The position numbers and the translations under genes were made by a program. Below are positions 6,529-33,122 of a stretch of 48,368 nt of DNA, one piece after another; the stretch's first letter is position 1; each line of letters opens with the position of its first letter. The DNA is from Minisyncoccota bacterium (GTDB lineage Bacteria > Patescibacteriota > Minisyncoccia > Phycocordibacterales > UBA9973). The notes beneath the pieces are model-generated. The model saw only the letters and a list, made by a program, of their open reading frames with translations. It did not search any database and had not been told where the DNA came from. The DNA lies in contig JAGOOX010000001.1 in the NCBI GenBank assembly GCA_017992305.1, positions 1-48,368 on the forward strand. The letters run 5' to 3'.

Positions 6529-6531
6529 AAC

Positions 6532-6565
6532 AAAACCCCGACATTGTCGGGGTTTTGTTTTATTC
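6532..6565 (+). terminator. Rho-independent terminator
   Basis: AAAACCCCGAC-attg-TCGGGGTTTT plus T-run. A second hairpin (6585-6612) with an A-run on plus serves the convergent minus-strand gene. Confidence 0.8.
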
Positions 6566-6621
6566 TTCTGTGTAAAAATAAAAAAAACCGGTCATTATAA
6601 CCGGCTTTTTAAGTAGATCTT

Positions 6622-7017
6622 TTAGTGGGACATAAAGGTTGGGTACTTATCGAACTCTCTCTTTATTTCAAGTGCCTCCCGCTCTTGTTTTGCTTTTTGA
6701 ATTGCAAACAATTCTTGTTGGATTTCAAAGTAAATCTCTCTTTCCTCATTTTTAACCTTGTTGAATTCTCGGCGCTTCTTGAGGTTTGGGGCAAGAAATG
6801 ACTTGAAGTCTTTGATATCATGAATATCCAAAGCTGGCATTTCGGGGGCAAATTTAGTGTAAACACTAGAACAGATGCGGTCAAAAGCTTCTTTTAATTG
6901 AGCTTTTTTAGCATTAGGGCGTGAATTTTTGAAGTTATTGTATCTGGTACAAAACTCTTCAACTACAAGTAGTCCTATTTCCATAGCTTTAATGATCTGT
7001 ATAGTCACATTATACAC
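6622..7017 (-). CDS. Hypothetical protein (131 aa from GTG 7017; alternative ATG at 6984)
   Basis: ORF with a charged helical C-terminal half and no recognisable motif. Start is uncertain because TATAAT overlaps the GTG codon region. Confidence 0.5.
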   Translation of the reverse strand: MYNVTIQIIKAMEIGLLVVEEFCTRYNNFKNSRPNAKKAQLKEAFDRICSSVYTKFAPEMPALDIHDIKDFKSFLAPNLKKRREFNKVKNEEREIYFEIQQELFAIQKAKQEREALEIKREFDKYPTFMSH

Positions 7018-7077
7018 TTATTATCTAAATTAGTCAAGTCTTTCATAGGCATAGAAATCATTGGCTAAATTAAGTGT

Positions 7078-11625: not shown

Positions 11626-12165
11626 ATGCACATTTATTTAAGAAAAGACGAAGAATTAGAAAGTGTTATCACGCTTAAAAACACTGAAACAGTACCTCAA
11701 AAATTTTGTGGTCAAACCGTTTGGAACTATGACCTGGTTCCGTACATCGAAATCAATACCGATCTTGAAGCGTTAATGAAAAACGAAACACTTAGAAAAT
11801 TCTTCCTTAGGGCTACACTCATTACGTTTCCAGAGTATCAAAAGATTAATAATCCAAAAAGGAACGGTTGGATTACTCGAGAGTTTGGAGATTATAAATT
11901 GGGTAATGCGACTGCTCAACTTGCACCTGCCAAGTCGGCTGAAACAACTTATTTGCTAAAAGTTGAAACTGATTCATGGCAAGGACTCGTTGATATGGAA
12001 AAATTGCAAAAAAGATTATGGGCCGGTACGATTGCTCCTGTTATTTCTTACGAAAGACAACAGGATAAGCAACACCCACTTACTGTCTTGAAAGAAATTT
12101 TAGGACTGCACAAGTTAAGTGCTTTAAAAAGATTTATTCTTGCAATGAGGTTAACCCGGGCATAA
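11626..12165 (+). CDS. Hypothetical protein, cassette A (179 aa)
   Basis: ORF between the duplicated promoter and terminator. ~72-nt leader. C-terminal tail LHKLSALKRFILAMRLTRA. Confidence 0.6.
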   Translation: MHIYLRKDEELESVITLKNTETVPQKFCGQTVWNYDLVPYIEINTDLEALMKNETLRKFFLRATLITFPEYQKINNPKRNGWITREFGDYKLGNATAQLAPAKSAETTYLLKVETDSWQGLVDMEKLQKRLWAGTIAPVISYERQQDKQHPLTVLKEILGLHKLSALKRFILAMRLTRA

Positions 12166-12366: not shown

Positions 12367-12906
12367 ATGAAACAGGAAACACCTAAAGCAAGTTTGAAGT
12401 TTTTCATTCCCAGTGGGATTGTTGACTCAAGAGAATTTAAAGAAAAAAAGGGTACCTATCATGGCGGTTGTGGCGAATGGTCACCAACAGGAGCCGGATT
12501 TATTCAGTACTCTCATGAATTTTTACACCTACAGCCATCATCCTTTATTTCAGACGATCTCTTACGGTATTTAAATGAAAATGCAACAAGAGTCGTTTTG
12601 CAAATACCGGCGGTACCAAACGAAAAAGTTATTAAAGGTTTAAGGCCTAAAGATAGCACTATTCAAGCAAACCAGGAGAAAGAATTTTCTATTCAGTTAG
12701 GTAAAAGAAGAATCTCAGGTATGAATTGTCAAATACAAAGTTCCTCGTTTGATCTTATCTTTGAAGGTAAATCTTCAAAAGATGTTTTTGAGACATTTCA
12801 CAGTTTTGCACCAGGCTATTTTCCTCAATCTTCTTTTATTCCAATTACTCATTTTTTGAGTGGAATGAATTTTTTTAGAAGGTTGCGTTTAGTTTTTGGT
12901 AAATAA
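12367..12906 (+). CDS. Hypothetical protein, cassette B (179 aa)
   Basis: Same length as cassette A with the same flanks. C-terminal tail THFLSGMNFFRRLRLVFGK aligns with the cassette A tail (H-x-L-S-x4-F). Confidence 0.6.
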   Translation: MKQETPKASLKFFIPSGIVDSREFKEKKGTYHGGCGEWSPTGAGFIQYSHEFLHLQPSSFISDDLLRYLNENATRVVLQIPAVPNEKVIKGLRPKDSTIQANQEKEFSIQLGKRRISGMNCQIQSSSFDLIFEGKSSKDVFETFHSFAPGYFPQSSFIPITHFLSGMNFFRRLRLVFGK

Positions 12907-16358: not shown

Positions 16359-16420
16359 CTGTGTTAGTATACACTTTTTTAAATATTGACACAAATAGGG
16401 TTTTTGTGTGGTAGGTGCGA

Positions 16421-16583
16421 GAAAAATAAAAATAGCTTCTTGCGCAAGGACCGCATATTTTCCTGAGCGAAAATTGCTCTGGCTCGGCTCGCCAGCCTGC
16501 GCGCGCCCTTGCCACAAGAACTATTTTTATTCCCCCCCCCTCCTTGTTGCCTTGGCCAATGGGGAGGGGGTTAGGGGGTGGGG
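16421..16583 (+). repeat. Copy 2 of the GC-rich structured repeat; ends in the canonical G-quadruplex motif GGGGAGGGGGTTAGGGGGTGGGG
   Basis: Homologous to 2771-2936. Hairpin 16536-16570. G4 motif 16561-16583. Lies in the lepB/pth divergent intergenic region. Confidence 0.7.
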
Positions 16584-16588
16584 TTTTG

Positions 16589-16597
16589 TGTTATAAT
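16589..16597 (+). promoter_or_regulatory. Extended -10 (TGtTATAAT) 6 nt upstream of the pth ATG; leaderless geometry
   Basis: TG 16589-16590, TATAAT 16592-16597, ATG 16604. Confidence 0.55.
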
Positions 16598-16603
16598 CTA
16601 TTC

Positions 16604-17143
16604 ATGTATATTTTCGCACTTGGTAACCCTGGTAAAAAATATGAAAACACTCCGCACAATGCGGGCCAAATTGTACTGCGTGATTTGGCCCCAAGTGGCG
16701 CCCAAATAATTTATCCCGATACTTTTATGAACGAATCGGGCAAGTTTATTAAAAAGTTTCTAGACTATAAAAACATAAACAATACTGAATATAAAAATAT
16801 TGTTATAGTGTATGACGACATTGATTTGCCAATTGGTGAATTTAAACTTGCTTTTGGCCGTGGCGATGGGGGGCACAATGGTTTAATTTCAGTCATTAAC
16901 GAATTAGGTACCCGCGATTTTATACGACTACGCATTGGTATTTGCCCAACTGACAGTAATGGTAATGCGCGCAAACCTAAAAACATATTTGGTCAAAACA
17001 CAACGCACAAATACGTATTACGAAATTTGTCACCTAACGAAACTACTAAACTAACTGCCAATCGCTCAAAAATCAAAAATATTTTAGAATCACTATACAT
17101 AAACGGTTACGAAAAAACCGCTAGTTTTATGGGGGTTTTGTAA
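16604..17143 (+). CDS. pth: Peptidyl-tRNA hydrolase
   Basis: MYIFALGNPGKKYENTPHNAGQ N-terminus, GRGDGGHNGL motif. The ORF-track start 16544 lies inside the repeat. Confidence 0.85.
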   Translation: MYIFALGNPGKKYENTPHNAGQIVLRDLAPSGAQIIYPDTFMNESGKFIKKFLDYKNINNTEYKNIVIVYDDIDLPIGEFKLAFGRGDGGHNGLISVINELGTRDFIRLRIGICPTDSNGNARKPKNIFGQNTTHKYVLRNLSPNETTKLTANRSKIKNILESLYINGYEKTASFMGVL

Positions 17144-18542: not shown

Positions 18543-19682
18543 TTATTCAGCGTCAGTTTTTACTTCTTCTGATTTTTCTTCTACTACTTCTTTAGTTTCA
18601 TTAGTTTCAACTTTTTCTAATTTCTTGTCTGGGTCCATGAATACCAATGTCATACGTTGGTCTTTTGGTTCAAACAATGTAACTTGGAAGTCATATGTTT
18701 TACCTAGTGTTAGTTTTTCGCGAAGTCTTTGTTCGCCACCGATTGATGAGTTGTGTATCAAACCTGCAACGCCTTCTTTGATCGAAACTAATGCACCGTG
18801 TTTGTTGTATTTAATAACAACACCTTGTACGATGTCACCCTTTTTCAGTGAGTTTTCAAAATCTTTCCATGGGTTTTCACGCAATGCTTTGATAGAAAGT
18901 GAAACTTTACCATCTTTGATTTCAATAATCTTGGCTTTAACTTTGTCACCAATTTTAAATCGTGAACGTGTGTCGTCAACTAGACCCCAGTCAATTTCTG
19001 AGATGTGAACTAGGCCTTCTAGGCGGTCTTCAAGCTTTAGAAATACTCCAAAGTCTACGATACCGGCAACAGTTGTTTCAACTTCATCCCCAACATTGTA
19101 TTTGATTAGCATTTCACCACGGCCTGCGTCTTCACCTGTTTTTTCAGAGAAGATTAGTTTGCCTTCCTTTGGTAGTGCTGAAATCATAGTTAGGTTTAGT
19201 TTTTGACCAACTAATTTTTTCAACTCAGTGTGAATTTTGTCTTTGTCTGAATCGGCAACACGAGGGTAATTTTCAGCTGATAGTTGTGACGCTGGCAAGA
19301 AGCCCATAATACCTTGCCATTCAATGATCAAACCACCCTTGTTAGCATCCTTCACGGTAACCTCAATAGGGGTTTTAGCTTTGATCAATTTGTCAGCCTC
19401 GCTCCAAATTAGGGCTTGCTTAGCTTCTTTTAGAGACAATTCAACATAACCGTCTTCGTTTTCAATATCAACAACTTTGGCCTTGATTGAATCACCAACG
19501 GCAACTTTCTTGATAATGTCACGAGCTACCATGAATTCACGACCATAAATGATACCTGTGCTAGATGGGCCTAGGTTAACATAAACGGCGTTTTTGGTAA
19601 TCGAAATAACTGGTCCTTCAACCAATGCCTCGATTAACGGCTTGTCGCTAGTCTTGTCTAATAGTTCTGTTTTTGTGTTCAT
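18543..19682 (-). CDS. rpsA: S1 RNA-binding repeat protein (ribosomal protein S1-like, four S1 domains)
   Basis: Repeated S1/OB motifs (GxVxxVxxFGxFVxL...GLVHISE-like), acidic C-terminal tail. Confidence 0.8.
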   Translation of the reverse strand: MNTKTELLDKTSDKPLIEALVEGPVISITKNAVYVNLGPSSTGIIYGREFMVARDIIKKVAVGDSIKAKVVDIENEDGYVELSLKEAKQALIWSEADKLIKAKTPIEVTVKDANKGGLIIEWQGIMGFLPASQLSAENYPRVADSDKDKIHTELKKLVGQKLNLTMISALPKEGKLIFSEKTGEDAGRGEMLIKYNVGDEVETTVAGIVDFGVFLKLEDRLEGLVHISEIDWGLVDDTRSRFKIGDKVKAKIIEIKDGKVSLSIKALRENPWKDFENSLKKGDIVQGVVIKYNKHGALVSIKEGVAGLIHNSSIGGEQRLREKLTLGKTYDFQVTLFEPKDQRMTLVFMDPDKKLEKVETNETKEVVEEKSEEVKTDAE

Positions 19683-19902
19683 ATAAATATAAAATCCGCA
19701 TTAATGCGGAGACCTCAAGTGTTCCTGCTCATCCAAAGTCTTGTGATGGACGAACAGGGGTTACATCTTGTGGTATACGTCTAAGGTATTCCCTAGACCT
19801 CCTAATAATATTTAATACTCATACCTTACTATAAAACCAACCTTTTTGCAAGGTATGTAAACATATAAACAAAGACCTGAAAGTGCGCAAATTTTTTGAA
19901 TA

Positions 19903-19911
19903 TGTTATAAT
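19903..19911 (+). promoter_or_regulatory. Extended -10 (TGtTATAAT) 7 nt upstream of ATG 19919; leaderless geometry
   Basis: TG 19903-19904, TATAAT 19906-19911. Confidence 0.5.
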
Positions 19912-19918
19912 AGACGGT

Positions 19919-20569
19919 ATGATAATTTCTTATTTAGGCAAGGAGTGTTTTAAGATTTCTCAGGGCGATTTTACTTTGGTGGTAAATCCTCCAAATAAAG
20001 ACTCAAAGTGGTCAAAGGGTATATCTCGTTTTGGTTCAAATGTAGCTATTTCAACCACCCTAGAAGATGATTTTTCAGGGACTGATTTATTCTCATATGG
20101 CGAAACTGTACCTTTTGAAATTCGCGGTGCCGGTCGCTATGAAATGAAGGGTATAGATGTAACTGGTGCATCTTTTTATATACAAAGACAAGTTGGAAAA
20201 GAGATAAAGAAGGTTTTAAATACTGTTTATACAATTACAATTGATGATATCGACATTGCCTTTTTGGGCCCAGTAACTACAACTGAAATAACTGGCGAGG
20301 CCCGCGAGGTGTTGGGTAGCCCACACATATTATTTATACCTATTGGTGGCGCAGATGTTATCGACCCCAAAGCCGCGGCCAAAATTGCTGTTATGTTAGA
20401 TGCACACATAACTATACCGATGGACTATGGCGACGACCAAAAACCTGACGCCCTAAAGACTTTTTTGAAGGAAATGGGTGCCGAAAACGTTAAAGCCGAG
20501 GATAAACTAACGCTAAAGCGTCGAGACATCGAATCAAAAGAAGGCGAGGTAATGGTTCTGTCGTATTAG
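19919..20569 (+). CDS. Metallo-beta-lactamase-fold (UPF0173-like) hydrolase homologue, tentative
   Basis: MIISYLGKECFKISQGDFTLVVNPP resembles the N-terminus of the MBL-fold UPF0173 family. Start chosen from the promoter geometry (the ORF-track start is GTG 19883). Confidence 0.5.
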   Translation: MIISYLGKECFKISQGDFTLVVNPPNKDSKWSKGISRFGSNVAISTTLEDDFSGTDLFSYGETVPFEIRGAGRYEMKGIDVTGASFYIQRQVGKEIKKVLNTVYTITIDDIDIAFLGPVTTTEITGEAREVLGSPHILFIPIGGADVIDPKAAAKIAVMLDAHITIPMDYGDDQKPDALKTFLKEMGAENVKAEDKLTLKRRDIESKEGEVMVLSY

Positions 20570-20597
20570 TCATTCTACAAATAATTCATTTTAATTT

Positions 20598-20870
20598 ATG
20601 GAAGAAGGTAAAAATATTATTGATAAAAAAAGGGAAAACAAGGTTATTGATGCCAAAAATAACATCAAGGCTGGCTTTTATACTTTAATAATTTTTGCTA
20701 TAGTTGTTGCCATATGGGTTTACACAAATCCTTTTTTTAATAAACCGCAAATTATAATTGATAGTTTTCAGGCCCAGCCCGAAACCGTTGCAAAAGTTAA
20801 CACGATTAACCAAAGCTTTAAAACCATGTGGTCAGATATTGCAGAAGGTTTTTCAAGTCTAAAAAAATAA
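20598..20870 (+). CDS. Small single-pass membrane protein
   Basis: One TM segment ([16 protein letters not shown]). Just upstream of gyrA. Confidence 0.5.
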
Positions 20871-20889
20871 AATAATTTTAAATAACAAA

Positions 20890-23412
20890 ATGCCAAAATC
20901 AAAAAAAGAAGTTAATAATGATTCTCATGAATTTGACCCATCAAAAAACAATGGTGGTGTTAATAATACTGGCATAAATGTAGCTGGCTTTAAAAGCATA
21001 CTACCCGTTTCAATAGTGGACGAAATGAAAAGTTCGTATTTAGACTATGCCATGAGTGTTATTACGTCTCGTGCGCTACCTGATGTTCGTGATGGTTTGA
21101 AACCTGTGCATCGCCGAATACTATTTTCAATGTATGAAAATGGTCTAACCGCTAGTGCTAAATTTAAAAAATCAGCCTTTATTGTGGGTGACGTGTTGGG
21201 TAAATATCACCCGCACGGTGATGCTTCAGTTTATGATGCCATGGTTAACTTGGCACAACCTTTCTCGACCCGCTACCCACTAGTCTTTGGTCAAGGTAAC
21301 TTTGGTTCAATTGATGGTGATAGCCAGGCTGCTATGCGTTATACCGAGGCTCGTATGTCTAAAATCGCCATGGAAATGATGCGCGACATTAATAAAGAAA
21401 CTGTTAATTTCGCCCCAAACTATGATGGTACTCGCAAAGAACCAACTGTTATGCCAACTGTTGTGCCACAACTACTATTAAATGGTACTTTGGGTATTGC
21501 CGTGGGTATGGCTACAAATATGGCGCCACACAATTTGCGCGAGGTGGTAGACGCAACCGTTCACATGATCGACAACCCCGATGCTACAACCGAAGATTTA
21601 ATGGATTATGTTCAAGGGCCCGACTTTCCAATTGGAGGTATTGCTTATAACAAGGCCGACATTTTACGTGCATATTCAACCGGCCGCGGTGGTGTTGTAA
21701 CACGAGGCGAGGCTGAAATTGTCGAAACAAAAAGCGGTCAATTTAATATAATAATTTCATCAATCCCATACCGCGTTGTTAAACAAAACATGGTTACCGC
21801 TATTGCTGAACTAGTGCACGAGAAAAAACTTGAAGGTATCAAAGACATGCGCGACGAATCAACCGACGAAATTCGTGTTGTTATTGAACTTAAAAATGGT
21901 GTTGCGCCAGAGAGGGTACTAAACTATTTATATAAACACACACAACTTGAACAAACCTTCCATTTCAACATGGTTGCGTTGGTTGACGGCGTACCACAAA
22001 CACTATCACTATCATCATTAATTAGTAATTTTATATTACACCGCGAAACAGTTGTACGACTACGTACCGAATACGATTTGCGCAAAGCTCGCGAACGCGA
22101 ACATATATTGTTGGGTTTGAAAAAAGCCCTTGATCACATTGATCGTGTTATTACAATAATTCGCGAATCAAAAGACGCGGCATTGGCCAAAGTTAACTTG
22201 ATGAAAGAATTCAAATTCTCTGATTTGCAAACTACTGCAATATTGGAAATGCGTTTGCAAAAATTGGCAGGCTTGGAACGTAAGGCTGTTGAATTAGAAC
22301 TAAAAGACATTCAAGATTTTATCAAAGAATGCGAATCAATTTTGGCATCACGACCAAAAATGCTTGCAATCATCAAAGACGAATTAAATGAGATCAAAGA
22401 AAAATACGGTGACGATCGCCGTACAAAAATTGTCAAAGGTGGCTTGAAATCAGTTAGTGATGAAGACCTAATACCGAACAAAGAAAACGTTTTGGTTTAT
22501 ACCAAGGGTGGTTATGTTAAACGTACTGACCCGTCTGAATATCGCGCGCAAAAGCGTGGCGGTGTAGGTGTAATTGATATTGAAACCAAAGACGAAGATT
22601 TTGTTACAATGTTAGTTTCAGCCAATACGCATGCTGACTTGCTATTTTTCACAAACTTGGGTAAAGCTTACCAAATTAAAATGTATGATATACCCGAGGG
22701 CAAAAAGGCCACAAAGGGTAAATCAATCATGAATTTCTTGTCGATTACTCAAAATGAATCAATCACATCGATTTTGCCAATTTCGAAGGAAAACAAAGAC
22801 AGTGTAAAAGCTTTGGTTTTGGTTACCAAAAACGGCGATGCTAAAAAGGTTTCAGCAAGTAGTTTCAAAGACGTACGTCGCAGTGGTATTATTTCAATCA
22901 AATTAGCGGCAGGTGACGAACTAGTTTCAGTACTACCTGTAACTGATACTGATGAGGTTGTAATTGTTTCAACCGAGGGTCAATCAATACGATTCAAAGA
23001 ATCAGACATTCGCGAAATGGGCCGTAGTGCTGGTGGTGTGCGCGCTATGAAGTTAGATAAAACTGATTTTGTGGTAGGTGTTGATGTTATTAAAAAGGGC
23101 CAAGATAAAGGCGCAGGTAAATTGTTAACCATGAGTGCTAATGGTTTGGGTAAACAAACTGAACTTTCTGAATACAAGGTGCAAAAGCGTGGCGGTAGCG
23201 GTATTAAAACCGCCAAGGTCACCCAAAAAACTGGTAATATTATAATTGCCAAGGTTATAACCGAACAAGAAGAACTAATTGCCGTATCACAAAAAGGCCA
23301 AATCATTCGCACTAGTATTGAATCAGTGCCAACATTGGGTCGCGATACCCAGGGCGTGACTGTTATGAAACTTCGCGCAGGGGACACAATCGCTTCGTTT
23401 ACTTGTTTGTAG
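20890..23412 (+). CDS. gyrA: DNA gyrase subunit A
   Basis: Motifs [28 protein letters not shown], plus C-terminal beta-pinwheel repeats. Confidence 0.95.
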
Positions 23413-23492
23413 AATTTTTTGTAATTTAAATCCCATACCTAGTATGGGAAAATAAAAAAGCCTCGTGTGTATAAAAACCACGAGGCTTTTTG

Positions 23493-24233
23493 CTAATTAA
23501 ATGTAATTTCAGCCATTTTTTGCCAAAAATTACCAAATACTTTGGTTGATTTTTTTACTGATTTAAAAATCTGGTCTAACCTTTCAGGAGTATTACCTAC
23601 CAGAGTAATTAAACTTTGGCTGTCATCAGCGTGAGTCTTCTCAAGCTTTTCATGTAGTTTAAAGTAGATCAAGTCCTCACCTTTTAATATGTCATGGCCG
23701 GGTTGGTATAAACTTTTTTCGAACGCCTTACCAATCGTTAAAATGTTGCTAGCAGTATATTCGACTACCAACAATTTACCGAAACCGTACTCAACAGAAG
23801 TTCTATTACTGAAGCTCTGATCCAAACTTTGTATAAGCATCTTAGTTTCGTGTTCGATTTCTTCGACAAAGCCAAGTTTTTTGGGAATTCTTTCAAAAAG
23901 TTTAAAATGAATAATTTTATGATCATTAGTGTCATCAACTTTTTTAATACCCAAGCCCCAATCGTTGCCCAAGATTTTTAATACTTCTTGTGTAAGTTTT
24001 TCAAGCCTAAATAATTCTTTCTCGTCATTTGTCAGTTCTTGTTGTTCAGTCAGCTGGCTTACCAGTCTTGGTAGACTTCTGGCAAAATGTCGTGTGACGG
24101 CATGCCAATTAGTGGCTAATTTTTGTAACTCTGATGAAGGGAAGCTGACAGGGCAGCGAAGTGATTTCTCAAAGCACGGGTTCCAAAAGGCCTGACTTTG
24201 TTGAATGTAGTTAATTATTTCTTCTTTTTCCAT
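23493..24233 (-). CDS. Hypothetical helical protein (246 aa); possibly a haem-oxygenase-like/iron-containing redox enzyme fold
   Basis: Clean ORF with its own bidirectional terminator (23454-23491). IYFKLHEKLEKTHADDS resembles the H-x3-E/D-x2-H motif of that fold. Sits between duplicated gyrA 3' ends. Confidence 0.45.
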   Translation of the reverse strand: MEKEEIINYIQQSQAFWNPCFEKSLRCPVSFPSSELQKLATNWHAVTRHFARSLPRLVSQLTEQQELTNDEKELFRLEKLTQEVLKILGNDWGLGIKKVDDTNDHKIIHFKLFERIPKKLGFVEEIEHETKMLIQSLDQSFSNRTSVEYGFGKLLVVEYTASNILTIGKAFEKSLYQPGHDILKGEDLIYFKLHEKLEKTHADDSQSLITLVGNTPERLDQIFKSVKKSTKVFGNFWQKMAEITFN

Positions 24234-24320
24234 AATTTAAAAGTTCAATTTATACAATCTTGCCGAATTTTAATCAAAATGTCAATATCGGAAGGTCTTG
24301 CCCTCCAATAGGCCATTGAA

Positions 24321-24380
24321 GGCGCTACCGTAATGAAACTTCGCGCAGGGGACACAATCGCTTCGTTTACTTGCCTGTAA
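24321..24380 (+). pseudogene. Displaced relic of the gyrA 3' end (encodes [19 protein letters not shown])
   Basis: 24333-24373 is identical to 23365-23405 (41 nt). Frame and stop are preserved. Followed by its own terminator (24404-24432). Confidence 0.8.
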
Positions 24381-24490
24381 GACTCTATAAATAAAAACCC
24401 ATAAAAAGCCTTAGTTTCTAAGGCTTTTTAACTTTTTATGTCTATTGACAAATAGGGTATAAAGGTGCTATAGTTACAGAGGTAAAAAAT

Positions 24491-24841
24491 ATGGAAAAGA
24501 AAAATATATGGATTAGCGCAATAAGCGCAATGTTCGCTGTACACATAATTGGTTGTACAGGTTTGATGAATGTACATGTTGCGATTTTAGTAATATTACA
24601 CATCATTTTGGGTTTAATTTTTGGCTTTTTGGTCAATTTCTATTATTCAGAAAAGAACCAGCTTTGGTTTTTTATCAGCTCTGTATTATTGATTGTGCTT
24701 ACGGTGGCCGGCTTTAGTGGCGACTCATTGCTATTGAATAAGGTCTTAAAAGACTACGCAGTACTTATTGCGCCAAGTACATTAACCTTTTTTTGTTTTG
24801 TAGGTCACTATATAGACAAAATAAAGTTGCTTAGGGCTTAA
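24491..24841 (+). CDS. Integral membrane protein (4 TM), unknown function
   Basis: Promoter TTGACA...TATAGT and GAGG Shine-Dalgarno upstream; terminator downstream. Confidence 0.6.
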   Translation: MEKKNIWISAISAMFAVHIIGCTGLMNVHVAILVILHIILGLIFGFLVNFYYSEKNQLWFFISSVLLIVLTVAGFSGDSLLLNKVLKDYAVLIAPSTLTFFCFVGHYIDKIKLLRA

Positions 24842-24905
24842 ATCAGGCCCTTCAAATCTTAAACACCTCAAAAGGGTGTTTTTCTTTTAGATAATACATA
24901 ATGTT

Positions 24906-24914
24906 TGATATACT
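24906..24914 (+). promoter_or_regulatory. Extended -10 (TGaTATACT) 6 nt upstream of ATG 24921; leaderless geometry
   Basis: TG 24906-24907, TATACT 24909-24914. Confidence 0.5.
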
Positions 24915-24920
24915 ATATAT

Positions 24921-25433
24921 ATGATTGATGCACCGCATAAAATTTTGGCACAATTAGTTATTCACGACGGTTCGTGTGTGATTGATTTTGGTGCAGGGTT
25001 TGGGACTTATTCATTACTGCTGTCAGACTTGGTCGGGCAGGGAGGTAGTGTTTTTGCAGTTGATGTACAAAGACATTTGATAGACAAAATTAAACGCGAA
25101 GCTAATGAAACTGGCAAAAAAAATATTTACCCAATGTATGCTGATGTTGAAAAATTGGGTGGTGTACCGCTACAGACTGCGGTGGCAGACTATATTTTTA
25201 TTGTAAATGTTTTAAACGAGGTAGATGATAAGCGAATCGTTTTTGAAGAAGCAAAAAGACTATTAAAAATGGGTGGCCGTTTAGTGGTGGTTGACCACGA
25301 AGACACGCCATTGCCGGGGGTAAAACATTTCAAACTTGTTGATTGCGAACTAGTGGCAAAAAATGCCGGCTTTCATAAAGTTGAAAAAATTGATGCAGGC
25401 GAATTTGCATATGGTATAATATATCAGTCATAA
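24921..25433 (+). CDS. Class I SAM-dependent methyltransferase
   Basis: Motif I VIDFGAGFGTYS, motif II-like VFAVD, GGRLVVVD. Confidence 0.8.
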   Translation: MIDAPHKILAQLVIHDGSCVIDFGAGFGTYSLLLSDLVGQGGSVFAVDVQRHLIDKIKREANETGKKNIYPMYADVEKLGGVPLQTAVADYIFIVNVLNEVDDKRIVFEEAKRLLKMGGRLVVVDHEDTPLPGVKHFKLVDCELVAKNAGFHKVEKIDAGEFAYGIIYQS

Positions 25434-25488
25434 GTTTTGTGACTTTTTAAAAAAGAAATTAAAATAAAAATTACGAAACTTTAATTAT

Positions 25489-26811
25489 ATGGATGAAGTA
25501 AAAAGTAAAAATCGGTTTGGTATAATATTGGCTCTTGTTGGGGCTGGCCTTTTGATTTTAGGGGTTTTGTTTTTCTCGGGCAAGTTGGGTGGTAAAAATT
25601 CAACTAGTACAGCCGAACCCGAGGGCATGGTTGTCGTTTGGGGTACTTTGCCACAGGTTGAATTTAACCAGGCCCTACAGTTTATTATGGCTAGGCAAAG
25701 TAAAATTGGCATATCATATACACAGGTTGCCCCAAACGAACTAAGGCCCAAGTTAATAGAGGCAATTGCTGCTGACATTGCCCCTGACATGGTTGTAACT
25801 GATATTTCAAACTTTTATTCAATCAAGTTTTACACCCAAGAAATACCGTATGCTATATACCCCGAGGCTGGGTTTAAACAAGCTTTTTCAGGTGTAACTC
25901 ATGACCTGCTAACCCAAACGGGTGTTTTGGGTATACCAATTGGTATTGACCCAATTATGATGTTCTTTAACCGCGAAATTTTGGCTCAGTCAGGCTATGC
26001 AACACCACCTCTAACATGGAATGACGTTTATTTAATGGCGCCTGATATTATAAAAATCGAAAAAGGACAATTAATTCGCCAAGAATTATTACCTTTTGGT
26101 CAATATAAAAATGTTAATAACGCTTGGGCTATTATTTCAACATTGTTTGCGCAGTCTCGTGTACCAATTGTTAGAACTGACCCAGTTATTGGTAAATTCG
26201 TTAACCTAGCTAATTCAGACATTGCCGGTATTGAAGGTGCGGGGCAACGAGTTATAGAATTTTATACACAGTTTTCTGACCCTAAAAGTCAATTTTACAC
26301 ATGGAATCGTTCAATGCTTGATTCAAAAAAAGAGTTTTTAGAGGGTAGGTTGGCTTTTTTGCCAAGCTTTGCATCTGAAGCCAAGGACCTGCGCGACCGT
26401 AACCCAAACTTAAACTTTGGTGTTGCCCAAATACCTCAGTTAAATACCGATGCTCAATATCAGGCGACTTTTGCAAATGTATATGTCGCAGGTATGCTAA
26501 AAAAATCAACTAACCCGACCGCTACAAATGTTGTGTTGTTCGAAATGGCGGGCACTGACTTTCAAAAGGCTTTTTCGCAAATACTAATGATGGCGCCAGC
26601 CCTAAGTTCATTGCTAATGTTGCCACCAGAAACGACTTATTTACCAACTGTATATCGTAGTGCCCTAATTGCTAAATCTTGGTACAATGATGATATGGTA
26701 AAAACTGAACAGGCATTTAGTCAAATGGTTGAATCGGTTATTTCGGGTAAGCAAAATGTGCAACAAGCAATTTATCAAGCTGAAAGGATTTTGAACAATA
26801 CAAACTTTTAG
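25489..26811 (+). CDS. Membrane-anchored extracellular solute-binding-protein-like protein (SBP family 1-like), orphan
   Basis: N-terminal TM. VVVWGT...APDMVV...PIGIDPIMMFFNREILAQSGYATPPLTWNDV matches the SBP_bac_1 pattern. No permease or ATPase genes adjacent. Confidence 0.6.
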   Translation: MDEVKSKNRFGIILALVGAGLLILGVLFFSGKLGGKNSTSTAEPEGMVVVWGTLPQVEFNQALQFIMARQSKIGISYTQVAPNELRPKLIEAIAADIAPDMVVTDISNFYSIKFYTQEIPYAIYPEAGFKQAFSGVTHDLLTQTGVLGIPIGIDPIMMFFNREILAQSGYATPPLTWNDVYLMAPDIIKIEKGQLIRQELLPFGQYKNVNNAWAIISTLFAQSRVPIVRTDPVIGKFVNLANSDIAGIEGAGQRVIEFYTQFSDPKSQFYTWNRSMLDSKKEFLEGRLAFLPSFASEAKDLRDRNPNLNFGVAQIPQLNTDAQYQATFANVYVAGMLKKSTNPTATNVVLFEMAGTDFQKAFSQILMMAPALSSLLMLPPETTYLPTVYRSALIAKSWYNDDMVKTEQAFSQMVESVISGKQNVQQAIYQAERILNNTNF

Positions 26812-26845
26812 ACAAATTTATACTAATTTCTAACCTAATTAAAAG

Positions 26846-27253
26846 ATGATCAAGCAACAAATTATAAAACTTTATAAAAATACAAATAATAGAATTTTGT
26901 TTTTTATAGCTTTATTAATGACAAGCTTTGTTCAACCAGTTCGCGCTGCTGGACTAGTGCCTTGCGAGGGTGTTGATGATTGTAATTTTGGCAAACTTGT
27001 TGAGCTGTTAAATAATATTGCCAGTTTTGTAATGTTTAGATTGCCAATATTGCTATTGGTAATTGTTTTTGCATGGAACGGGGTAATGCTAATTTATAAA
27101 AGCGACCGCGCGGGTACATTAAAAACTATTAAAAAAAATATGCTAAACGTTTTATGGGGTTATTTACTAGTGGTTGGTGCATATATAATTGTTAAAACAT
27201 TTATTATGCTGATTGCTGGTCAAGAGTTATCATTTAAGGTATTCTTTAATTAA
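26846..27253 (+). CDS. TrbC/VirB2-like 'T4SS pilin' family small membrane protein, paralogue 1
   Basis: Signal peptide ending VRA-AG, GLVPCEGVDDCNF motif, then two hydrophobic helices separated by a charged loop (KSDRAGTLKTIKK). Confidence 0.55.
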   Translation: MIKQQIIKLYKNTNNRILFFIALLMTSFVQPVRAAGLVPCEGVDDCNFGKLVELLNNIASFVMFRLPILLLVIVFAWNGVMLIYKSDRAGTLKTIKKNMLNVLWGYLLVVGAYIIVKTFIMLIAGQELSFKVFFN

Positions 27254-27254
27254 G

Positions 27255-27803
27255 ATGAAAAAAATATTCAATAAAAATTTAAAATTTGTAACTATTTTTA
27301 GCATAGTTTTTTTGGCTTTGTTTGTGTTTGGCGGGCATCGTGTTTTAGCTCAATTTAATACTGCAAACGACCCCTTTTTTGACCCGCTCAATGATACAAA
27401 AAAACCGGTAGACCTAAAACTTACAAACACCAATACTCCACCTACAGGGGGTAACCCTACTGGGGGCGCAGGGGGTAACCCGGCCCAAGGTGGTGCAGGT
27501 GGTCCCGGGACTGAAAAAAGTGGTCTACAAATAACCTTAACAAATCCCTTAAAATCAAATAGTTTAGAGGATTTTATACAAATAGTTTTAGGTGTTATTT
27601 TAAAGTTTTTAATACCTATTTTGGCTATATTATTTATGTACACTGGCTTTAAGTTAATTATAGCCAAAGGCGAGCCGGCGGCTTTGAAGGCAGCAAAGCA
27701 AGACTTTTTAAACCTAGTTATTGGTTCAGTATTAATACTGGGCGCATGGACGTTTGGTAACATTATTATGAACACATTAAAAGAAGTGGGTATTTTAAAT
27801 TAA
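27255..27803 (+). CDS. TrbC/VirB2-like 'T4SS pilin' family protein, paralogue 2, with a Gly/Pro-rich linker
   Basis: Start ATG 27255 (MKKIFNK...), signal peptide ...VLA-Q, PPTGGNPTGGAGGNPAQGGAGGPG linker, then LTNPLKSNSLEDFI...two TM helices with the loop AKGEPAALKAAKQD. Confidence 0.6.
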   Translation: MKKIFNKNLKFVTIFSIVFLALFVFGGHRVLAQFNTANDPFFDPLNDTKKPVDLKLTNTNTPPTGGNPTGGAGGNPAQGGAGGPGTEKSGLQITLTNPLKSNSLEDFIQIVLGVILKFLIPILAILFMYTGFKLIIAKGEPAALKAAKQDFLNLVIGSVLILGAWTFGNIIMNTLKEVGILN

Positions 27804-27829
27804 ATAGTTAAATAACTAATTGCATTAAT

Positions 27830-28216
27830 ATGAAAAATATAACAAATAAAATTTTAACAATTGTTGCCCTGGCGTTTGCGCCTCTTTCGGTTTTTGCTCA
27901 AAATAGAAGCGCTTCGTTGTGTGGGCCTATTAAATATTCACAATCATTGCAAAGCTATTTGTGCGAGGCATACAGGCTAGTTGGTTATTATTTAATACCT
28001 TTATTGACACTGGCTGCACTGGGTTGGTTTATGTGGAACGCAATAATGTTAATTAAAAATGCAAATGTTGAAAAACTTCGCGGTGAATACAAAATTGCCA
28101 TGATGTGGGGCTTGGTAGCACTGTTTGTTATGGTTTCGGTTTGGGGTATTGTGGGCATAATGGGTGGTATTGTTGGTACTAATACATCGGTTATTCCACA
28201 AATTCGTTACAAATAG
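27830..28216 (+). CDS. TrbC/VirB2-like pilin family protein, paralogue 3
   Basis: Signal peptide ...SVFA-Q, two TM helices, loop KNANVEKLRGEYK. Confidence 0.55.
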   Translation: MKNITNKILTIVALAFAPLSVFAQNRSASLCGPIKYSQSLQSYLCEAYRLVGYYLIPLLTLAALGWFMWNAIMLIKNANVEKLRGEYKIAMMWGLVALFVMVSVWGIVGIMGGIVGTNTSVIPQIRYK

Positions 28217-28291
28217 TTGACTTTTTATATTAAATATATGGTACAATATGTTTATAAAAGGTTTTAATTTTTTATTAGTAATTAATTGTTT

Positions 28292-28690
28292 ATGAAAAAA
28301 GTATTATTGATTTTAGTTTCAGCTCTAACCCCATTGGTTGCATCTGCCCAATTTATAAATTTGGGTGGTGCGCCTAATTTTGGTTACGTTAGTAGCGGTG
28401 TTGACCAATTGTTTCGTATTGCGACAACGTATGTTATACCTACGTTAACTCTATTAGCATCAGCCTTCTTTATTTGGGGTGTTATTGGTTACATTAGAGC
28501 TGACACCAAAGAAAACAAAGAAAAGTCAAGACACGCCCTAGTACAAGGCATTATTGCGCTAGCTGTTATTGTGTCAGCTTGGGGTATTGTTAGATTGCTA
28601 CAAAACGTAGCTGGTGTTACGCCTTCGACTACAACAAACACAATTTGTCCACCTGGATACACACCTGTTGGAGCTATTTGTAGGCCTTAA
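28292..28690 (+). CDS. TrbC/VirB2-like pilin family protein, paralogue 4
   Basis: Start ATG 28292 (MKKVLLIL...), signal peptide ...VASA-Q, two TM helices, loop RADTKENKEKSRH, Cys-containing tail. Confidence 0.55.
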   Translation: MKKVLLILVSALTPLVASAQFINLGGAPNFGYVSSGVDQLFRIATTYVIPTLTLLASAFFIWGVIGYIRADTKENKEKSRHALVQGIIALAVIVSAWGIVRLLQNVAGVTPSTTTNTICPPGYTPVGAICRP

Positions 28691-28694
28691 ACAT

Positions 28695-29006
28695 ATGTTT
28701 ACAATTGCCTATGCAGCTGAAACCGGCGAAATAGTTAACGCTGTTTTTACAAAAATTGTTGACCCTGTTGTAATTTTCGGTTTCGTTGTTGCCTTTTTCT
28801 ACTTTATGTGGGGGATAGTGGCATTCATTCGTAATGCCGACAACTCAGCCAAACGCGACATTGGCAAACAGCATATTGGTTGGGGTTTAGTAGGATTGTT
28901 GGTAATGTTTAGTTGTTATACAATATTACAAATTATTGTTAATACACTAGATTTGCAATCACCCCCTAACGGGCCTGATTATCGAACAATCAATCAGCGC
29001 CAGTAA
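28695..29006 (+). CDS. TrbC/VirB2-like pilin family protein, paralogue 5 (short leader)
   Basis: Start ATG 28695, 4 nt after the previous stop. Two TM helices, loop RNADNSAKRDIGKQ. Confidence 0.5.
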   Translation: MFTIAYAAETGEIVNAVFTKIVDPVVIFGFVVAFFYFMWGIVAFIRNADNSAKRDIGKQHIGWGLVGLLVMFSCYTILQIIVNTLDLQSPPNGPDYRTINQRQ

Positions 29007-29047: not shown

Positions 29048-29677
29048 CTAGAAAAATCTTTTTAGAATCGGCCTACTGTAACCCTTTGTGTGTGTAAACA
29101 CAATTCTTTCGCCAGCTTTGAATTGTTCACCCGGTGTCAATAATAAAGGTATTATCTCGACATTCCCCAATGAGTCAGTTCTTTGTACTTGTTTCAGCCT
29201 AAGACCGTCTTCACCGGTACCAGAAACAATGACTTCTTCATTTGGGCCCAAGCCATCAATTCTATACTGCTGATAAGGTTCAAGGTGGGTAATAAGTCGA
29301 CCACCATTAAATTCAGTATAAGTAGTGTCGGATCGTGTTTGCACAACGTCTCTACTTGCAGTTACTGGATCTCTGTTTAGGTCACTACCTAATAGTTTTT
29401 TAGGTACGAAAATAAGAGAAGGTAAAAGTGCTATTACAAGCAATATTTTACCTCGCAAACTTCTACCCATTTGAAACGCCAGTATTGCTATAAGTAAGGT
29501 AGTGATCGTGAACCAGAAATACCATGTCCATGCCCAAACTTCCCAAACTGAAGGAAAGCTCAGCTTTAGGGCCATTACGGATAAAACAATAATCGCTAGA
29601 CTGGATGTAATTTTAAACTTCCAGTTAGATCCTAAGATATTTTGAATGAAACTCGCTATTAATATAAATGTTCTCAT
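29048..29677 (-). CDS. Membrane protein (3-4 TM) with a beta-rich C-terminal domain; possible NfeD-like partner of the upstream SPFH gene
   Basis: Start moved to ATG 29677 (MRTFILIAS...). Trp-rich TM region, soluble C-terminal ~110 aa. Confidence 0.5.
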   Translation of the reverse strand: MRTFILIASFIQNILGSNWKFKITSSLAIIVLSVMALKLSFPSVWEVWAWTWYFWFTITTLLIAILAFQMGRSLRGKILLVIALLPSLIFVPKKLLGSDLNRDPVTASRDVVQTRSDTTYTEFNGGRLITHLEPYQQYRIDGLGPNEEVIVSGTGEDGLRLKQVQRTDSLGNVEIIPLLLTPGEQFKAGERIVFTHTKGYSRPILKRFF

Positions 29678-29781
29678 GATTTTTATTTCTAACTTAATTA
29701 TAGCATATACTACGAAAAAAGTCAAATAAAAAAGCCCTATTTGATTAGTATCAAATAGGGCTACTCTGGGGGATTTTAGTT

Positions 29782-31299
29782 TTACGGTCTGTTTTTCATT
29801 GCTTCGGCAACCTCTTTTAGGGCTTGAACAATTAATACTGTTGATACGGAATTGTCTGCAGGTCCTGAATTACCAGGCGCTGCTACATTATTATTATTAT
29901 CTTTAATAATAACAGTTCCTTTAGCGCCAGCATACTGCTTGGCTACCTCAAGAGCATATTCTGCATCAATAATAATTTGTGCATCAACGCCATTTGCCTT
30001 GGCCGTCTTTAAGAGATTACTTAAGGCTTTTACTTCAACTACATTCATTTCTTTGGCGCCTTTGGCTTTAGCTAAGAGGTCCATTTTGGTGAGCATTGCC
30101 GCGGCCTTGTTCAAAAGAGTGTTCTTGCCAGCCTCTTCTTTACCCTTAACTTTTATGTTGTAGGCTTCACCTTCAGATACTCTTTTACTAGTATAAAGGT
30201 CTTTATCAGCGTCTATTGCCTCCTTTTCTTTTTTGGCTTTAGCAATTGAAATATTGATTTGAGCTTCATGCATATCTTTAGGTGCATGCAGGGCTGAAAC
30301 TGATGAAGTACGAATATTTAAACCAAGTTCCTGGCTTTCATTAAGCTTGCTTACTTTTTTTAATAATTCATAAGACATTGCGCCAACGCGTAATAATGCT
30401 GCCAATTTACCATAAGGGAACTTTTTAAAAATTTCGTTTAGTACAGCCTTTGTATTAGCAACCATTTGACTGATTATGTACTCGCGTCTTTTTTCTTCGG
30501 TTTGACCCTCAACGTTTTTCCAAAACAGTTCAATGTTGTGCTGCCATTTAGTATCATCTTGAATGTCAATATCTATTACCAAGTTAACTTCGGGGAACAG
30601 GGTTGTTTGAGTATGCATAACAGCATCCTTTTCCTCTTGTTCCCATACTTTTTTTGCTATTTCAATCTCGGTATTGTTTGGCTGGGCATCCTCGTACGCA
30701 CCTCTAGTTATACCAGCTAAGACTTCTCTTTTTCTAGCAATAGCAACAGAATACATTTCAATAAAATCTTTTTTGTAGGATTTTGATTGGTCAGCGGTCG
30801 ATGTTCCGATTGCAAAATCAGGATTTGCACCACCGGTTTTGTTAAATAAAATCTCTATGTTTTTATTACTTCGAGATTCTACTGTAAAGATGGGGTTATG
30901 AATATATGGACCACCTCTTCTAAAGTGGCCAACTATTTTACCCTCAACTGTTAGTATTCCTACGTGGTCAACTGGAACTTCCCGTATCTCTTGTTTGAAT
31001 AACGTAAGGAACAAAGCAATTTTTGATGTCGTATAATAAATGTTTTTATAATAGTCATCGATAAACACAAACGGTATGAAACCGTCGTCAGATTGATTTA
31101 TTGTTTGATTCTTCTGCACTGGATTGTAAATAACTCCCTGGCTTGCCAGTATCATCCAAATTAGAATCGGGATGAAAATTGCAAGAGTGCAGCCAACAAT
31201 TACGAGCTCTGTTTTTTCTATGAATGTTAGGGAACAGATCACCCCAGCTATGATTACTATCAATACGATAACAAGCATGTTTTTCGTTTTTATCCTCAT
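29782..31299 (-). CDS. SPFH/band-7 (flotillin-like) membrane protein, 505 aa
   Basis: Two N-terminal TM helices. VPVDHVGILTVEGKIVGHFRRGGPYIHNPIF matches the start of the SPFH domain. LGLNIRTSSVSALHAPKDMHEAQ...EGEA plus an Ala/Lys-rich coiled-coil tail. Confidence 0.55.
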   Translation of the reverse strand: MRIKTKNMLVIVLIVIIAGVICSLTFIEKTELVIVGCTLAIFIPILIWMILASQGVIYNPVQKNQTINQSDDGFIPFVFIDDYYKNIYYTTSKIALFLTLFKQEIREVPVDHVGILTVEGKIVGHFRRGGPYIHNPIFTVESRSNKNIEILFNKTGGANPDFAIGTSTADQSKSYKKDFIEMYSVAIARKREVLAGITRGAYEDAQPNNTEIEIAKKVWEQEEKDAVMHTQTTLFPEVNLVIDIDIQDDTKWQHNIELFWKNVEGQTEEKRREYIISQMVANTKAVLNEIFKKFPYGKLAALLRVGAMSYELLKKVSKLNESQELGLNIRTSSVSALHAPKDMHEAQINISIAKAKKEKEAIDADKDLYTSKRVSEGEAYNIKVKGKEEAGKNTLLNKAAAMLTKMDLLAKAKGAKEMNVVEVKALSNLLKTAKANGVDAQIIIDAEYALEVAKQYAGAKGTVIIKDNNNNVAAPGNSGPADNSVSTVLIVQALKEVAEAMKNRP

Positions 31300-31325
31300 T
31301 TTTAATGTTCTATATTTCAGTCTAC

Positions 31326-31354
31326 ATTATAGCAAACTTTATATAAAAAGTCAA
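31326..31354 (-). promoter_or_regulatory. Promoter (minus strand) TTGACT-17 nt-TATAAT for the SPFH gene, directly after a terminator hairpin
   Basis: Plus-strand agtcaa 31349-31354 and attata 31326-31331. Hairpin aaaaaccctt..aagggattttt lies just upstream on the minus strand. Confidence 0.65.
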
Positions 31355-31436
31355 GTTAAAAATCCCTTATAAACAAGGGTTTTTTATACAAAAACAGCCC
31401 CTTTTTTAAGGGGCTGTAGTATGCGTAAAGAACTTT

Positions 31437-32645
31437 TTAGCTAGATGTGCTTGAACTGTTGTTGCTAGTCTGCTGCATGCGTCTTCTGATGTCAGCGGCT
31501 CTTTCGTTGGAGTTCTGAATCAGTTGTACATGCTCTATGGCTCTTTCAAAAACGAATGAATCGCTTTTTGAGAAGAACTTTAACAATACAGGTATCGCCT
31601 CAATGAAGAAAAACATAAAGAACACTGCCCAAATGATTGGGTTTCTGCCAGCGATGTCGTTTAACACGTCTAACATAAATGCCAAACCATTTACCGGCCT
31701 TGCTAATACTTTTTCAATCAGGACTTGTTCGGCTGTGTCAATATCGGCCAGGTCAGCTTTTGCTTTTACTCGGGCTTTTTCAAGCTCTTTGGTGTAAACA
31801 TCAACTGATTGAGCTGCAACAGATTCTGTTTTGGCAGCATTTCTTTCAGCTATGAGGTTCTCCTTCAGTGCTTCGTAGCGCGAAATTGTTTCGCGAATAC
31901 CTTTTGCAACAGATCCATCACCAGCTCGGCCAGATACTCCACCTGGGCCTTTGATCTCGTAGGGGAGTTTTGAACTCCAAAACTTGATTGAGTCATCGGT
32001 TGCAGTGATCTTTTCCTCGTAGCTTTGAGCTAGAGTAGCCAGGTCAGCTTGCATTTTTCCAAGGGCGTCCTCAGCCTTTTTTACAGTGTTTACTACTGAG
32101 TCTTTTTGATGTTTGAGTGAATCAGATATGGCAGCGGTTTCGCTGTCCTGACGTATCTTAATTTCAGCCGTTATTTCCGGCTTAAACATAATCACCCTGA
32201 TCATCTCACTGTTAAAATAACAGATGAAGAAAATCATTACAAAACGAAGTAATAGCCAACCAAAGCCGGCACTGGAATTCTTTTCGATGTGTTCATGATC
32301 GAAAGTTCCTTCCTTCATGGCTTTGGCTACTTTTCGAACTGAGATCACATCCATCTGCTGTAGAATTGATCGTTCAAGCATTAGCATAATCATGAACCAA
32401 AATGGTCCCACGAGGTAACCCCATGGACCCATTGGTATGAACCAGGCTACTGATGCAAGCACTGCTGATACTAATGCAACCACGAATACTACAATACCTG
32501 CAGTAATACGTTTTTGCTTGTCATCGGGTAAGGTTTTTTTGAAAGCGGCAAGGGTGCTTCCACCACATGCTGCAAAAAACAGGCTGATAGGGCTCGAGTG
32601 ATGAGCCTCTAAAGAGTTGAGGTATTGGTTATCTGTGTTGTTCAT
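31437..32645 (-). CDS. DUF4407-like membrane protein (TM pairs flanking a long coiled coil)
   Basis: N-terminal FFAACGGSTLAAFKKTLPDDKQKRITAGIVVF...ERSILQQMD pattern, central coiled coil, C-terminal TM (IIWAVFFMFFFIEAIPVLLKF). Confidence 0.55.
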   Translation of the reverse strand: MNNTDNQYLNSLEAHHSSPISLFFAACGGSTLAAFKKTLPDDKQKRITAGIVVFVVALVSAVLASVAWFIPMGPWGYLVGPFWFMIMLMLERSILQQMDVISVRKVAKAMKEGTFDHEHIEKNSSAGFGWLLLRFVMIFFICYFNSEMIRVIMFKPEITAEIKIRQDSETAAISDSLKHQKDSVVNTVKKAEDALGKMQADLATLAQSYEEKITATDDSIKFWSSKLPYEIKGPGGVSGRAGDGSVAKGIRETISRYEALKENLIAERNAAKTESVAAQSVDVYTKELEKARVKAKADLADIDTAEQVLIEKVLARPVNGLAFMLDVLNDIAGRNPIIWAVFFMFFFIEAIPVLLKFFSKSDSFVFERAIEHVQLIQNSNERAADIRRRMQQTSNNSSSTSS

Positions 32646-32674
32646 CTTTTTTGTGTTTTTTAAATCCTGCTATA

Positions 32675-32703
32675 ATGATAGCATATAATAAATAAAAAGT
32701 CAA
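32675..32703 (-). promoter_or_regulatory. Promoter (minus strand) TTGACT-17 nt-TATCAT for the DUF4407-like gene
   Basis: Plus-strand agtcaa 32698-32703 and atgata 32675-32680. Preceded on the minus strand by the hairpin aaaagctctt..aagggcttttt. Confidence 0.6.
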
Positions 32704-32784
32704 GCTAAAAAGCCCTTATCTATAAGAGCTTTTTGGGCAAAAGAAAAGGGTTTTTGTACAAAAAATGCAACAAAACCCCTTGTA

Positions 32785-32994
32785 TTAAATAGTAACTTTA
32801 AATATGAGCGAAAGTATTTTAATTATTGCCCATATTAAATATGCACTACTGACCCATATGACTAAGGCAAAAACCATTTCTTTTTTTTTGCCTTTGCCTA
32901 GTAATAGGCCAATTGTTCCGACTTTGAACATTTCAAATTTATTTTTTTTATTCTCGATAAAGTCGCTATCTAGAATAATTTCTTTATCTTTCAT
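32785..32994 (-). CDS. Small membrane protein (69 aa)
   Basis: Strong dedicated promoter. C-terminal TM FALVIWVSSAYLIWAIIKILSLIF. Confidence 0.5.
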   Translation of the reverse strand: MKDKEIILDSDFIENKKNKFEMFKVGTIGLLLGKGKKKEMVFALVIWVSSAYLIWAIIKILSLIFKVTI

Positions 32995-33015
32995 CTCTGA
33001 CTAATTACGTATTAC

Positions 33016-33044
33016 ATATTAGCATACTAAATAGCCTTTGTCAA
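33016..33044 (-). promoter_or_regulatory. Promoter (minus strand) TTGACA-17 nt-TAATAT (TGc extended)
   Basis: Plus-strand tgtcaa 33039-33044 and atatta 33016-33021. Confidence 0.6.
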
Positions 33045-33107
33045 TATCTGTAATAAGTCAAAAACTGAATTTATAGTTTGTTTAGTTAATGTTTATAAAA
33101 CGTTTTA

Positions 33108-33116
33108 TGTTATAAT
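33108..33116 (+). promoter_or_regulatory. Extended -10 (TGtTATAAT) 6 nt upstream of ATG 33123; leaderless geometry
   Basis: TG 33108-33109, TATAAT 33111-33116. Confidence 0.55.
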
Positions 33117-33122
33117 ATTTTT

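Follow-up and report, generated by a model that had tools for sequence, protein, structure and literature searches.

The DNA analysed here (hereafter the window) is a stretch of 48,368 nucleotides of contig JAGOOX010000001.1 from a Minisyncoccota bacterium (assembly GCA_017992305.1), in which the 3′ end of gyrA adjoins a ~1-kb insert bracketed by direct repeats. gyrA is an 840-amino-acid open reading frame (ORF) on the plus strand (20890–23412). It is full length against the NCBIfam gyrA equivalog profile (1091 bits for a cut-off of 902), with a match that reaches the last profile positions, and comparison with native alleles assigned its last 7 nt (23406–23412, T TTG TAG) to the insert. An exact look-up of the GyrA protein returned no record. 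The window contains a 41-nt sequence, ATGAAACTTCGCGCAGGGGACACAATCGCTTCGTTTACTTG, in exactly two copies, one at 23365–23405 inside gyrA and one at 24333–24373. No further copy with up to three mismatches was found in the window, and such a repeat is not expected by chance, as matches appeared in none of 100 shuffles of the window. The second copy of the gyrA tail is in frame after a TAG at 24309–24311 and has its own stop codon at 24378–24380.

The left junction, which resembles a left attachment (att) site, or attL (plus strand, 23353–23411), runs from native gyrA through the 41-nt core into an insert-borne tail. Downstream of the gyrA stop codon, a hairpin scan and folding located a first hairpin (TCCCATAC-CTA-GTATGGGA; 23431–23449) and a two-way terminator-like hairpin, also insert-borne (23454–23491), composed of an A-run, GCCTCGTG, a loop, CACGAGGC and a T-run. 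The segment 23406–23495, which holds both of these strong hairpins, folds with −21.2 kcal/mol (z = −7.8), and the second hairpin would, judging from its sequence, terminate both gyrA and the convergent cargo gene, here called X. X (23493–24233, minus strand) is intact, is the only ORF between the repeats and encodes a 246-amino-acid protein. Upstream of it lie ~85 nt of DNA inside the insert, where we read by eye a promoter-like site (TTGATT, 17 nt, TATAAA; minus strand, 24249–24277) ending 15 nt before the ATG; a consensus scan missed this site because its rule calls for a −10 hexamer with T in the sixth position. The insert is thus self-sufficient in having its own terminators. The right junction, of the attR type (plus strand, 24319–24380), consists of 14 nt of insert-borne gyrA-like sequence, the core and the native tail C CTG TAA. 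It is followed by the native gyrA terminator hairpin, with a stem of 13 pairs (plus strand, 24402–24430), now 968 nt from the gene, and by the native promoter of a downstream gene for a 116-amino-acid membrane protein (plus strand, 24445–24474; TTGACA-18-TATAGT, 11 of 12 matches, upstream TG). This promoter is kept in relatives and marks where the conserved gene order resumes. The layout bears out a first-pass annotation made from the sequence alone, which had described the perfect repeat at the gyrA 3′ end, a second copy keeping frame and stop, what looked like the original gyrA terminator behind it, and a new terminator and one oppositely oriented gene between the copies.

A repeat finder extended the similarity to 59 nt at 90% identity (23353–23411 against 24321–24379, spacing 968). 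Mismatches between the copies affect 7 of the 18 flanking bases and none of the 41 core bases, a placement with a chance of C(18,7)/C(59,7) = 9.3e-5. All six flanking codons differ between the two tails, and five of these six changes are synonymous. The confinement of the mismatches to the flanks, together with the change of every flanking codon, indicates that two diverged gyrA tails met here and that one was not copied in place. Upstream of the right-hand core, similarity to gyrA is not significant past ~14 nt; a longer homology that seemed visible by eye in this region was no better than in shuffled sequence and was discarded.

We then searched with the C-terminal 250 amino acids of GyrA and kept 80 loci from Paceibacteria/Nomurabacteria-type Patescibacteria. 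In the closest relative (L006; 99% amino-acid and ~88% nucleotide identity) the gyrA stop codon is followed by the terminator hairpin, the TTGACA promoter and the genes for a 115-amino-acid membrane protein, a methyltransferase and a 440-amino-acid solute-binding protein, the same features that lie beyond the right-hand copy of the tail in the window. BLAST aligned L006 1–4750 with window 18678–23411 and L006 4690–7593 with window 24319–27280, so that one 61-nt segment of L006 (4690–4750) aligns to both window copies. A degenerate core pattern encoding the same peptide returned empty sites only, on one genome contig and three metagenome contigs; the latter (L086, L087 and L088) have a single tail each. 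L086 and L087 belong to the L006 lineage (~88% nucleotide identity) and L088 to a second lineage (87%). In all four contigs the lone gyrA tail ends in TGCCT[G/A]TAA and leads directly into the terminator hairpin seen at 24402–24430 and the TTGACA promoter. The genes downstream of gyrA in L006, L086 and L087 are those that the window has beyond its second copy; in L088 the first gene is a different one. Four empty-site contigs from two lineages indicate that the insertion is real and specific to the lineage of the window. The first-pass annotation had proposed integration into the gene's 3′ end by an element carrying a replacement end, and had suggested comparing related genomes for an empty site; the comparison was positive, and the tail now attached to gyrA agrees with the proposal, as set out below.

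Native alleles read TGC CT[G/A] TAA and continue with GACTCTA… or AAATCTA… into the hairpin. The right copy in the window has this same form, and the sequence beyond it (CCTGTAAGACTCTA...), the hairpin and the promoter match the relatives. The tail joined to gyrA in the window reads TGT TTG TAG AATTTT, which differs from every native allele, and the sequence to the right of the left copy, TTTGTAGAATTTT, has no match in relatives. From these comparisons the left junction is native on its left and foreign on its right, and the right junction is foreign on its left and native on its right, the pattern that one crossover of the chromosome with a circle bearing a mimic of the gyrA tail leaves behind. 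Since TGT TTG TAG differs from all native alleles yet encodes Cys-Leu-stop, just like the native TGC CTG TAA, the insert did bring a replacement 3′ end with it. The reconstructed mimic is AAGGCGCTACCGTA-core-TTTGTAG; of the 14 positions in its left flank, 12 agree with the L006 allele. This left flank, untranslated after integration, loses similarity within 14 nt, and the right flank keeps its coding sense; by our estimate, a random end would restore Cys-Leu-stop with a chance of ~0.002. The gyrA reading frame is preserved. Leaving the target gene intact after integration is the reason why gene-end-targeting elements carry such mimics.

To characterize the cargo, we compared protein X with profiles and solved structures. 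The match to Pfam Haem_oxygenas_2 (PF14518) is weak (20.8 bits, below the gathering cut-off of 28.9), and there was no match among the NCBIfam models. Only three close relatives (55–63% identity) were found among 5.8 billion proteins, and an exhaustive profile search added 46 more distant ones. Among the distant relatives, 15 of 37 match PF14518 and 17 of 37 match DUF6202. The alignment of 37 sequences shows no variation at H109, E158, H194 and E198 and almost none at H201; the first four occupy the His/carboxylate ligand positions of the haem-oxygenase-like dimetal oxidase (HDO) superfamily and are predicted metal ligands. The profile built from this alignment matches the solved structures of PolF (3e-24), BesC (4e-10) and CADD (3e-9). 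An AlphaFold2 model reached a pLDDT of 93 with the 37-sequence alignment (44 with four sequences), and Foldseek assigned it a probability of 1.00 to PolF, CADD and BesC, with a TM score of 0.74–0.79 to PolF. The cargo protein thus has the HDO fold, which upholds the earlier guess of a haem-oxygenase-like protein, and by its profile, model and fold comparison X is predicted to be an intact diiron enzyme of a rare subfamily of these oxidases.

In the contigs carrying the three homologues, X is not adjacent to gyrA; in L001–L004 it is divergent from a gene for a TrmB-family regulator. The study that yielded the closest relative of the window also produced the Patescibacteria bin in which one of the homologues was found. 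Around the X homologues of contigs L001, L004 and L005, neither flanking direct repeats nor conserved non-coding sequence was found. In L004, a large serine recombinase (Resolvase, Recombinase and Zn_ribbon_recom domains; 5669–8601) directly adjoins the TrmB–X pair, genes for a DNA methyltransferase and for superinfection immunity lie upstream of the pair, and the contig ends 229 nt after X, which may there be cargo of a mobile element. L005, which encodes homologue P0004, carries four copies of a ~100-nt structured intergenic repeat (1468–1571, 3979–4082, 4841–4944 and 5830–5890), one of them after X. In each, a long outer stem, TTCGAACTTCAT…ATGAAGTTCGAA, encloses an inner hairpin (folding z of −3.5 to −5.4). 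The arrangement resembles a cassette array or a miniature-repeat family, and the integron attC core motif did not fit it. A 9–12-nt resemblance between this repeat and the hairpin of the insert did not align.

Taken together, the locus shows the attL/attR-type repeats, the empty sites in relatives and the replacement end that characterize an integrative element. We consider that the insert is probably a decayed or trans-mobilised site-specific integrative element akin to the cis-mobilizable elements (CIMEs). In this scenario, a small foreign circle would have carried X and a ~60-nt mimic of the gyrA 3′ end, and one crossover with the chromosomal gyrA tail, inside the 41 shared bases, would have integrated it in the manner of a Campbell-type event. 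gyrA would then end in the last codons of the mimic, Cys-Leu-stop in another spelling, and would use the insert-borne terminator, and its original last 20 codons, the terminator and the downstream genes would have moved 968 nt away, behind the 14 untranslated nucleotides of the mimic's left flank. The catalyst would have been a site-specific recombinase, an enzyme now gone. It may have been lost when the other parts of a larger element were deleted, so that a CIME-like remnant with both att sites and one expressed cargo gene stayed behind, or it may be encoded elsewhere and act in trans.

Several results weigh against this interpretation. A scan of 27 ORFs across the window revealed no recombinase; these ORFs gave housekeeping matches (SMC, SecA, DnaE, HisRS and IF-2 among them) or no family match. 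The statement in the first-pass annotation that no integrase is present therefore holds for all 27 ORFs scanned, and inside the insert the sole ORF is that of the HDO-fold enzyme. Nor do the surroundings of gyrA in relatives reveal a visible hotspot. When the 80 loci kept were searched with the tail peptide (tblastn), a second gyrA tail copy within 6 kb appeared in the window alone. In 68 of 77 relatives the solute-binding-protein gene is retained no more than 4.5 kb from gyrA, and the 26 non-syntenic ORFs found downstream of gyrA in the 77 relatives include no integrase family. Searches of genome, metagenome and viral collections yielded neither a partner site of the attP form nor a further copy of the element. 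The 41-nt core has no notable dyad symmetry or structure, and the base composition of X bears no foreign signature (GC 0.358 and third-position GC 0.336, for 0.387 ± 0.023 and 0.332 ± 0.042 in host genes). Lastly, 41 identical bases suffice for RecA-mediated recombination, which makes a dedicated recombinase unnecessary.

The searches for a partner covered different forms of the site. The exact 41-mer, a search for which had also been suggested from the sequence, had no match in the genome collection, and neither had the insert-borne tail pattern (…TGTTTGTAGAATT). The degenerate core pattern had no match in viral contigs, where the last 100 amino acids of GyrA found no relative. No cognate integrase-bearing element at the same att site was found among the 80 loci, the downstream ORFs of the 77 relatives or the viral contigs; the scan for a hotspot covered flanks to 6 kb in one genome per species, which makes it a weak negative for a CIME partner. 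Separately, 7 of the 26 non-syntenic ORFs match Y1_Tnp (IS200-like); by position and size, these are probably the opposite-strand ORFs of ~200 amino acids that come right after gyrA in the more distant Paceibacteria loci L038, L074, L079, L080 and L081. We also observed that in L009, L011, L015 and ~30 other gyrA loci the C-terminal 250 amino acids span 1035–1041 nt and not 744–750 nt, which suggests a ~97-amino-acid insertion in the GyrA C-terminal domain of some lineages.

The main alternative, though an unlikely one, is that RecA, with no site-specific enzyme involved, carried out the single crossover in the longest identical block, with a small circle or circularised transforming DNA from a related Patescibacteria strain in which a diverged gyrA tail lay beside X. 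A 41-nt block of identity within diverged flanks is what recombination between similar sequences leaves, no integrase was found anywhere we searched, the event is a singleton and not a recurrent att site, and the host-like composition of X fits a closely related donor. This explanation, however, still needs a prior event to place X beside a copy of the gyrA tail in the donor. Moreover, the mimic is only ~62 nt long, loses similarity abruptly in its left flank and keeps coding sense just on the gene-end side, so that it looks selected, as in dedicated attachment sites.

It is quite improbable that the 968-bp unit is a working miniature integrative circle of one gene, with the ~60-nt gyrA-tail mimic as its only signal, moved in trans by a recombinase whose gene lies elsewhere in the genomes of Patescibacteria or of their phages.

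We regard as distinctly improbable, too, that the arrangement reflects an assembly choice, in which an empty gyrA site (core-CCTGTAA) and a 968-bp circle (GCTACCGTA-core-TTTGTAG), or strain variants, were joined through the repeat. In the k = 31 assembly of run SRR11088391, window 23376–24362 reappears unchanged as a contig of 987 nt, made up of 927 nt of unique insert with 30 nt of core at each end, the break falling exactly 30 nt into the core, and a second contig starts at 24344 and follows the window for 5,498 nt without a mismatch. These two matches place the repeat and all four flanks in the reads of that run. The k = 31 graph looks identical for an integrated element and for an empty site plus a 968-bp circle, this Logan assembly breaks at the core, and no second independent contig crosses either junction, all of which would agree with a wrong join. 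However, on either side of the core the flanks already diverge at the first base, so that an assembler with k of at least 43 should need real reads over each hybrid junction. In addition, a 968-bp circle lacking a replication gene could not persist except as an excision product, in which case it would still come from a real integrating element. A transposon-like insertion with target duplication, or a gyrA tail that was duplicated in place and diverged afterwards, has direct repeats flanking the insert in its favor and next to no probability: it is disfavored by the placement of all mismatches outside the core (p = 9.3e-5) and by the diverged, codon-respecting flanks where a target duplication would be identical throughout, no terminal inverted repeats or transposase were found for the insert, and 41–59 nt is, to our knowledge, far longer than known target duplications.

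Elsewhere in the window we noted a second 3′-end duplication. The last 18 nt of a tRNA-Tyr gene (42590–42673) and the 14 nt downstream of it (GAATCCTGCTCGGCGCACAAAT[A/G]ATAAAAACC) recur at 42783–42814 and 42922–42953, and the two ~130-nt units between these repeats are 90–93% alike. They resemble att-type scars lined up in tandem at a tRNA 3′ end; if the gyrA insert were a working cassette, the improbable reading given above, the tandem units (42656–42953) could be a second product of that process. The repeat was not found in viral contigs. A ~190-nt repeat (2770–2960 and 16420–16607, 70–74% identity) contains a G-rich hairpin, CCCCCTCC…GGGGAGGGGG, and its second copy covers the divergent start region of the genes for signal peptidase and peptidyl-tRNA hydrolase. 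Between 11493 and 12974 lie two tandem paralogous genes for 179-amino-acid proteins (11626–12165 and 12367–12906) with no Pfam match, each with a duplicated promoter-like region and terminator that are 91–92% identical. The region 29048–35009 holds large ORFs without a Pfam match (225, 505 and 628 amino acids) around a DUF4407 protein and may be a variable or surface-structure region; small genes at 26846–29006 have type IV pilin-like and TrbC-like matches on record.

How host-dependent Patescibacteria, with their tiny genomes, gain genes is very poorly known. The gyrA locus is a clean case, in which one accessory enzyme gene has entered an essential gene at its tail, each junction is preserved and relatives document the empty site. 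It indicates that gene-preserving integration targeting 3′ ends operates in Patescibacteria, and it adds gyrA to the possible targets; a full-text search of the literature found no report of gyrA as an integration target. If still mobile, the unit would rank with the smallest known integrative units. The process itself is familiar and well documented, an att-flanked insert at a gene end with no integrase is a known kind, and no new mechanism needs to be invoked. The scar lies at a target, gyrA, for which that search found no report, in a phylum whose mobile DNA has been little studied, and its cargo is a rare predicted diiron oxidase.

Among known systems, the HDOs are represented by PolF, BesC, CADD and UndA (PMC12614342, PMC13108848). 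X shares their helical fold and keeps the His/Glu ligand positions, but has only 12–17% identity to any solved member, and only three sequences with at least 55% identity to it exist among the 5.8 billion searched. The integron cassettes resemble the insert in having one promoter-proximal cargo gene, a unit of ~1 kb and possibly a small circle. In contrast, the insert has no attC-type imperfect palindrome, attI or IntI, its site copies the target gene's end, and its cargo comes with a promoter-like site and terminators of its own; apart from the gyrA-tail repeat, the insert flanks hold nothing but terminator hairpins of a simple kind.

Another parallel is offered by islands that target 3′ ends and supply a replacement end, such as SGI1 in trmE and SCCmec in rlmH. 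Like these islands and the integrative and mobilizable elements (IMEs), the insert lies at the last codons of a conserved gene, between att-type direct repeats, and the target gene stays functional; those elements, however, span 10–100 kb and carry an integrase beside one att site, which the insert does not. GIsul2 is described in the cited text as integrating in guaA (PMC9376610). CIMEs are integrative and conjugative elements (ICEs) or IMEs that have decayed, keeping attL and attR and losing the genes for integration and transfer (PMC5704250). The gyrA insert likewise keeps both sites and has no integration or transfer genes. It shares with CIMEs the direct repeats at the 3′ end of a protein gene, an end restored by the element, the absence of recombinase and transfer genes and a content of cargo only, and differs from them in its far smaller size (0.97 kb, one gene), in having no known cognate integrase-bearing element at its site and in its Patescibacteria host. 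The CIMEs at the fda 3′ end of Streptococcus thermophilus exemplify the kind of element to which the gyrA insert compares.

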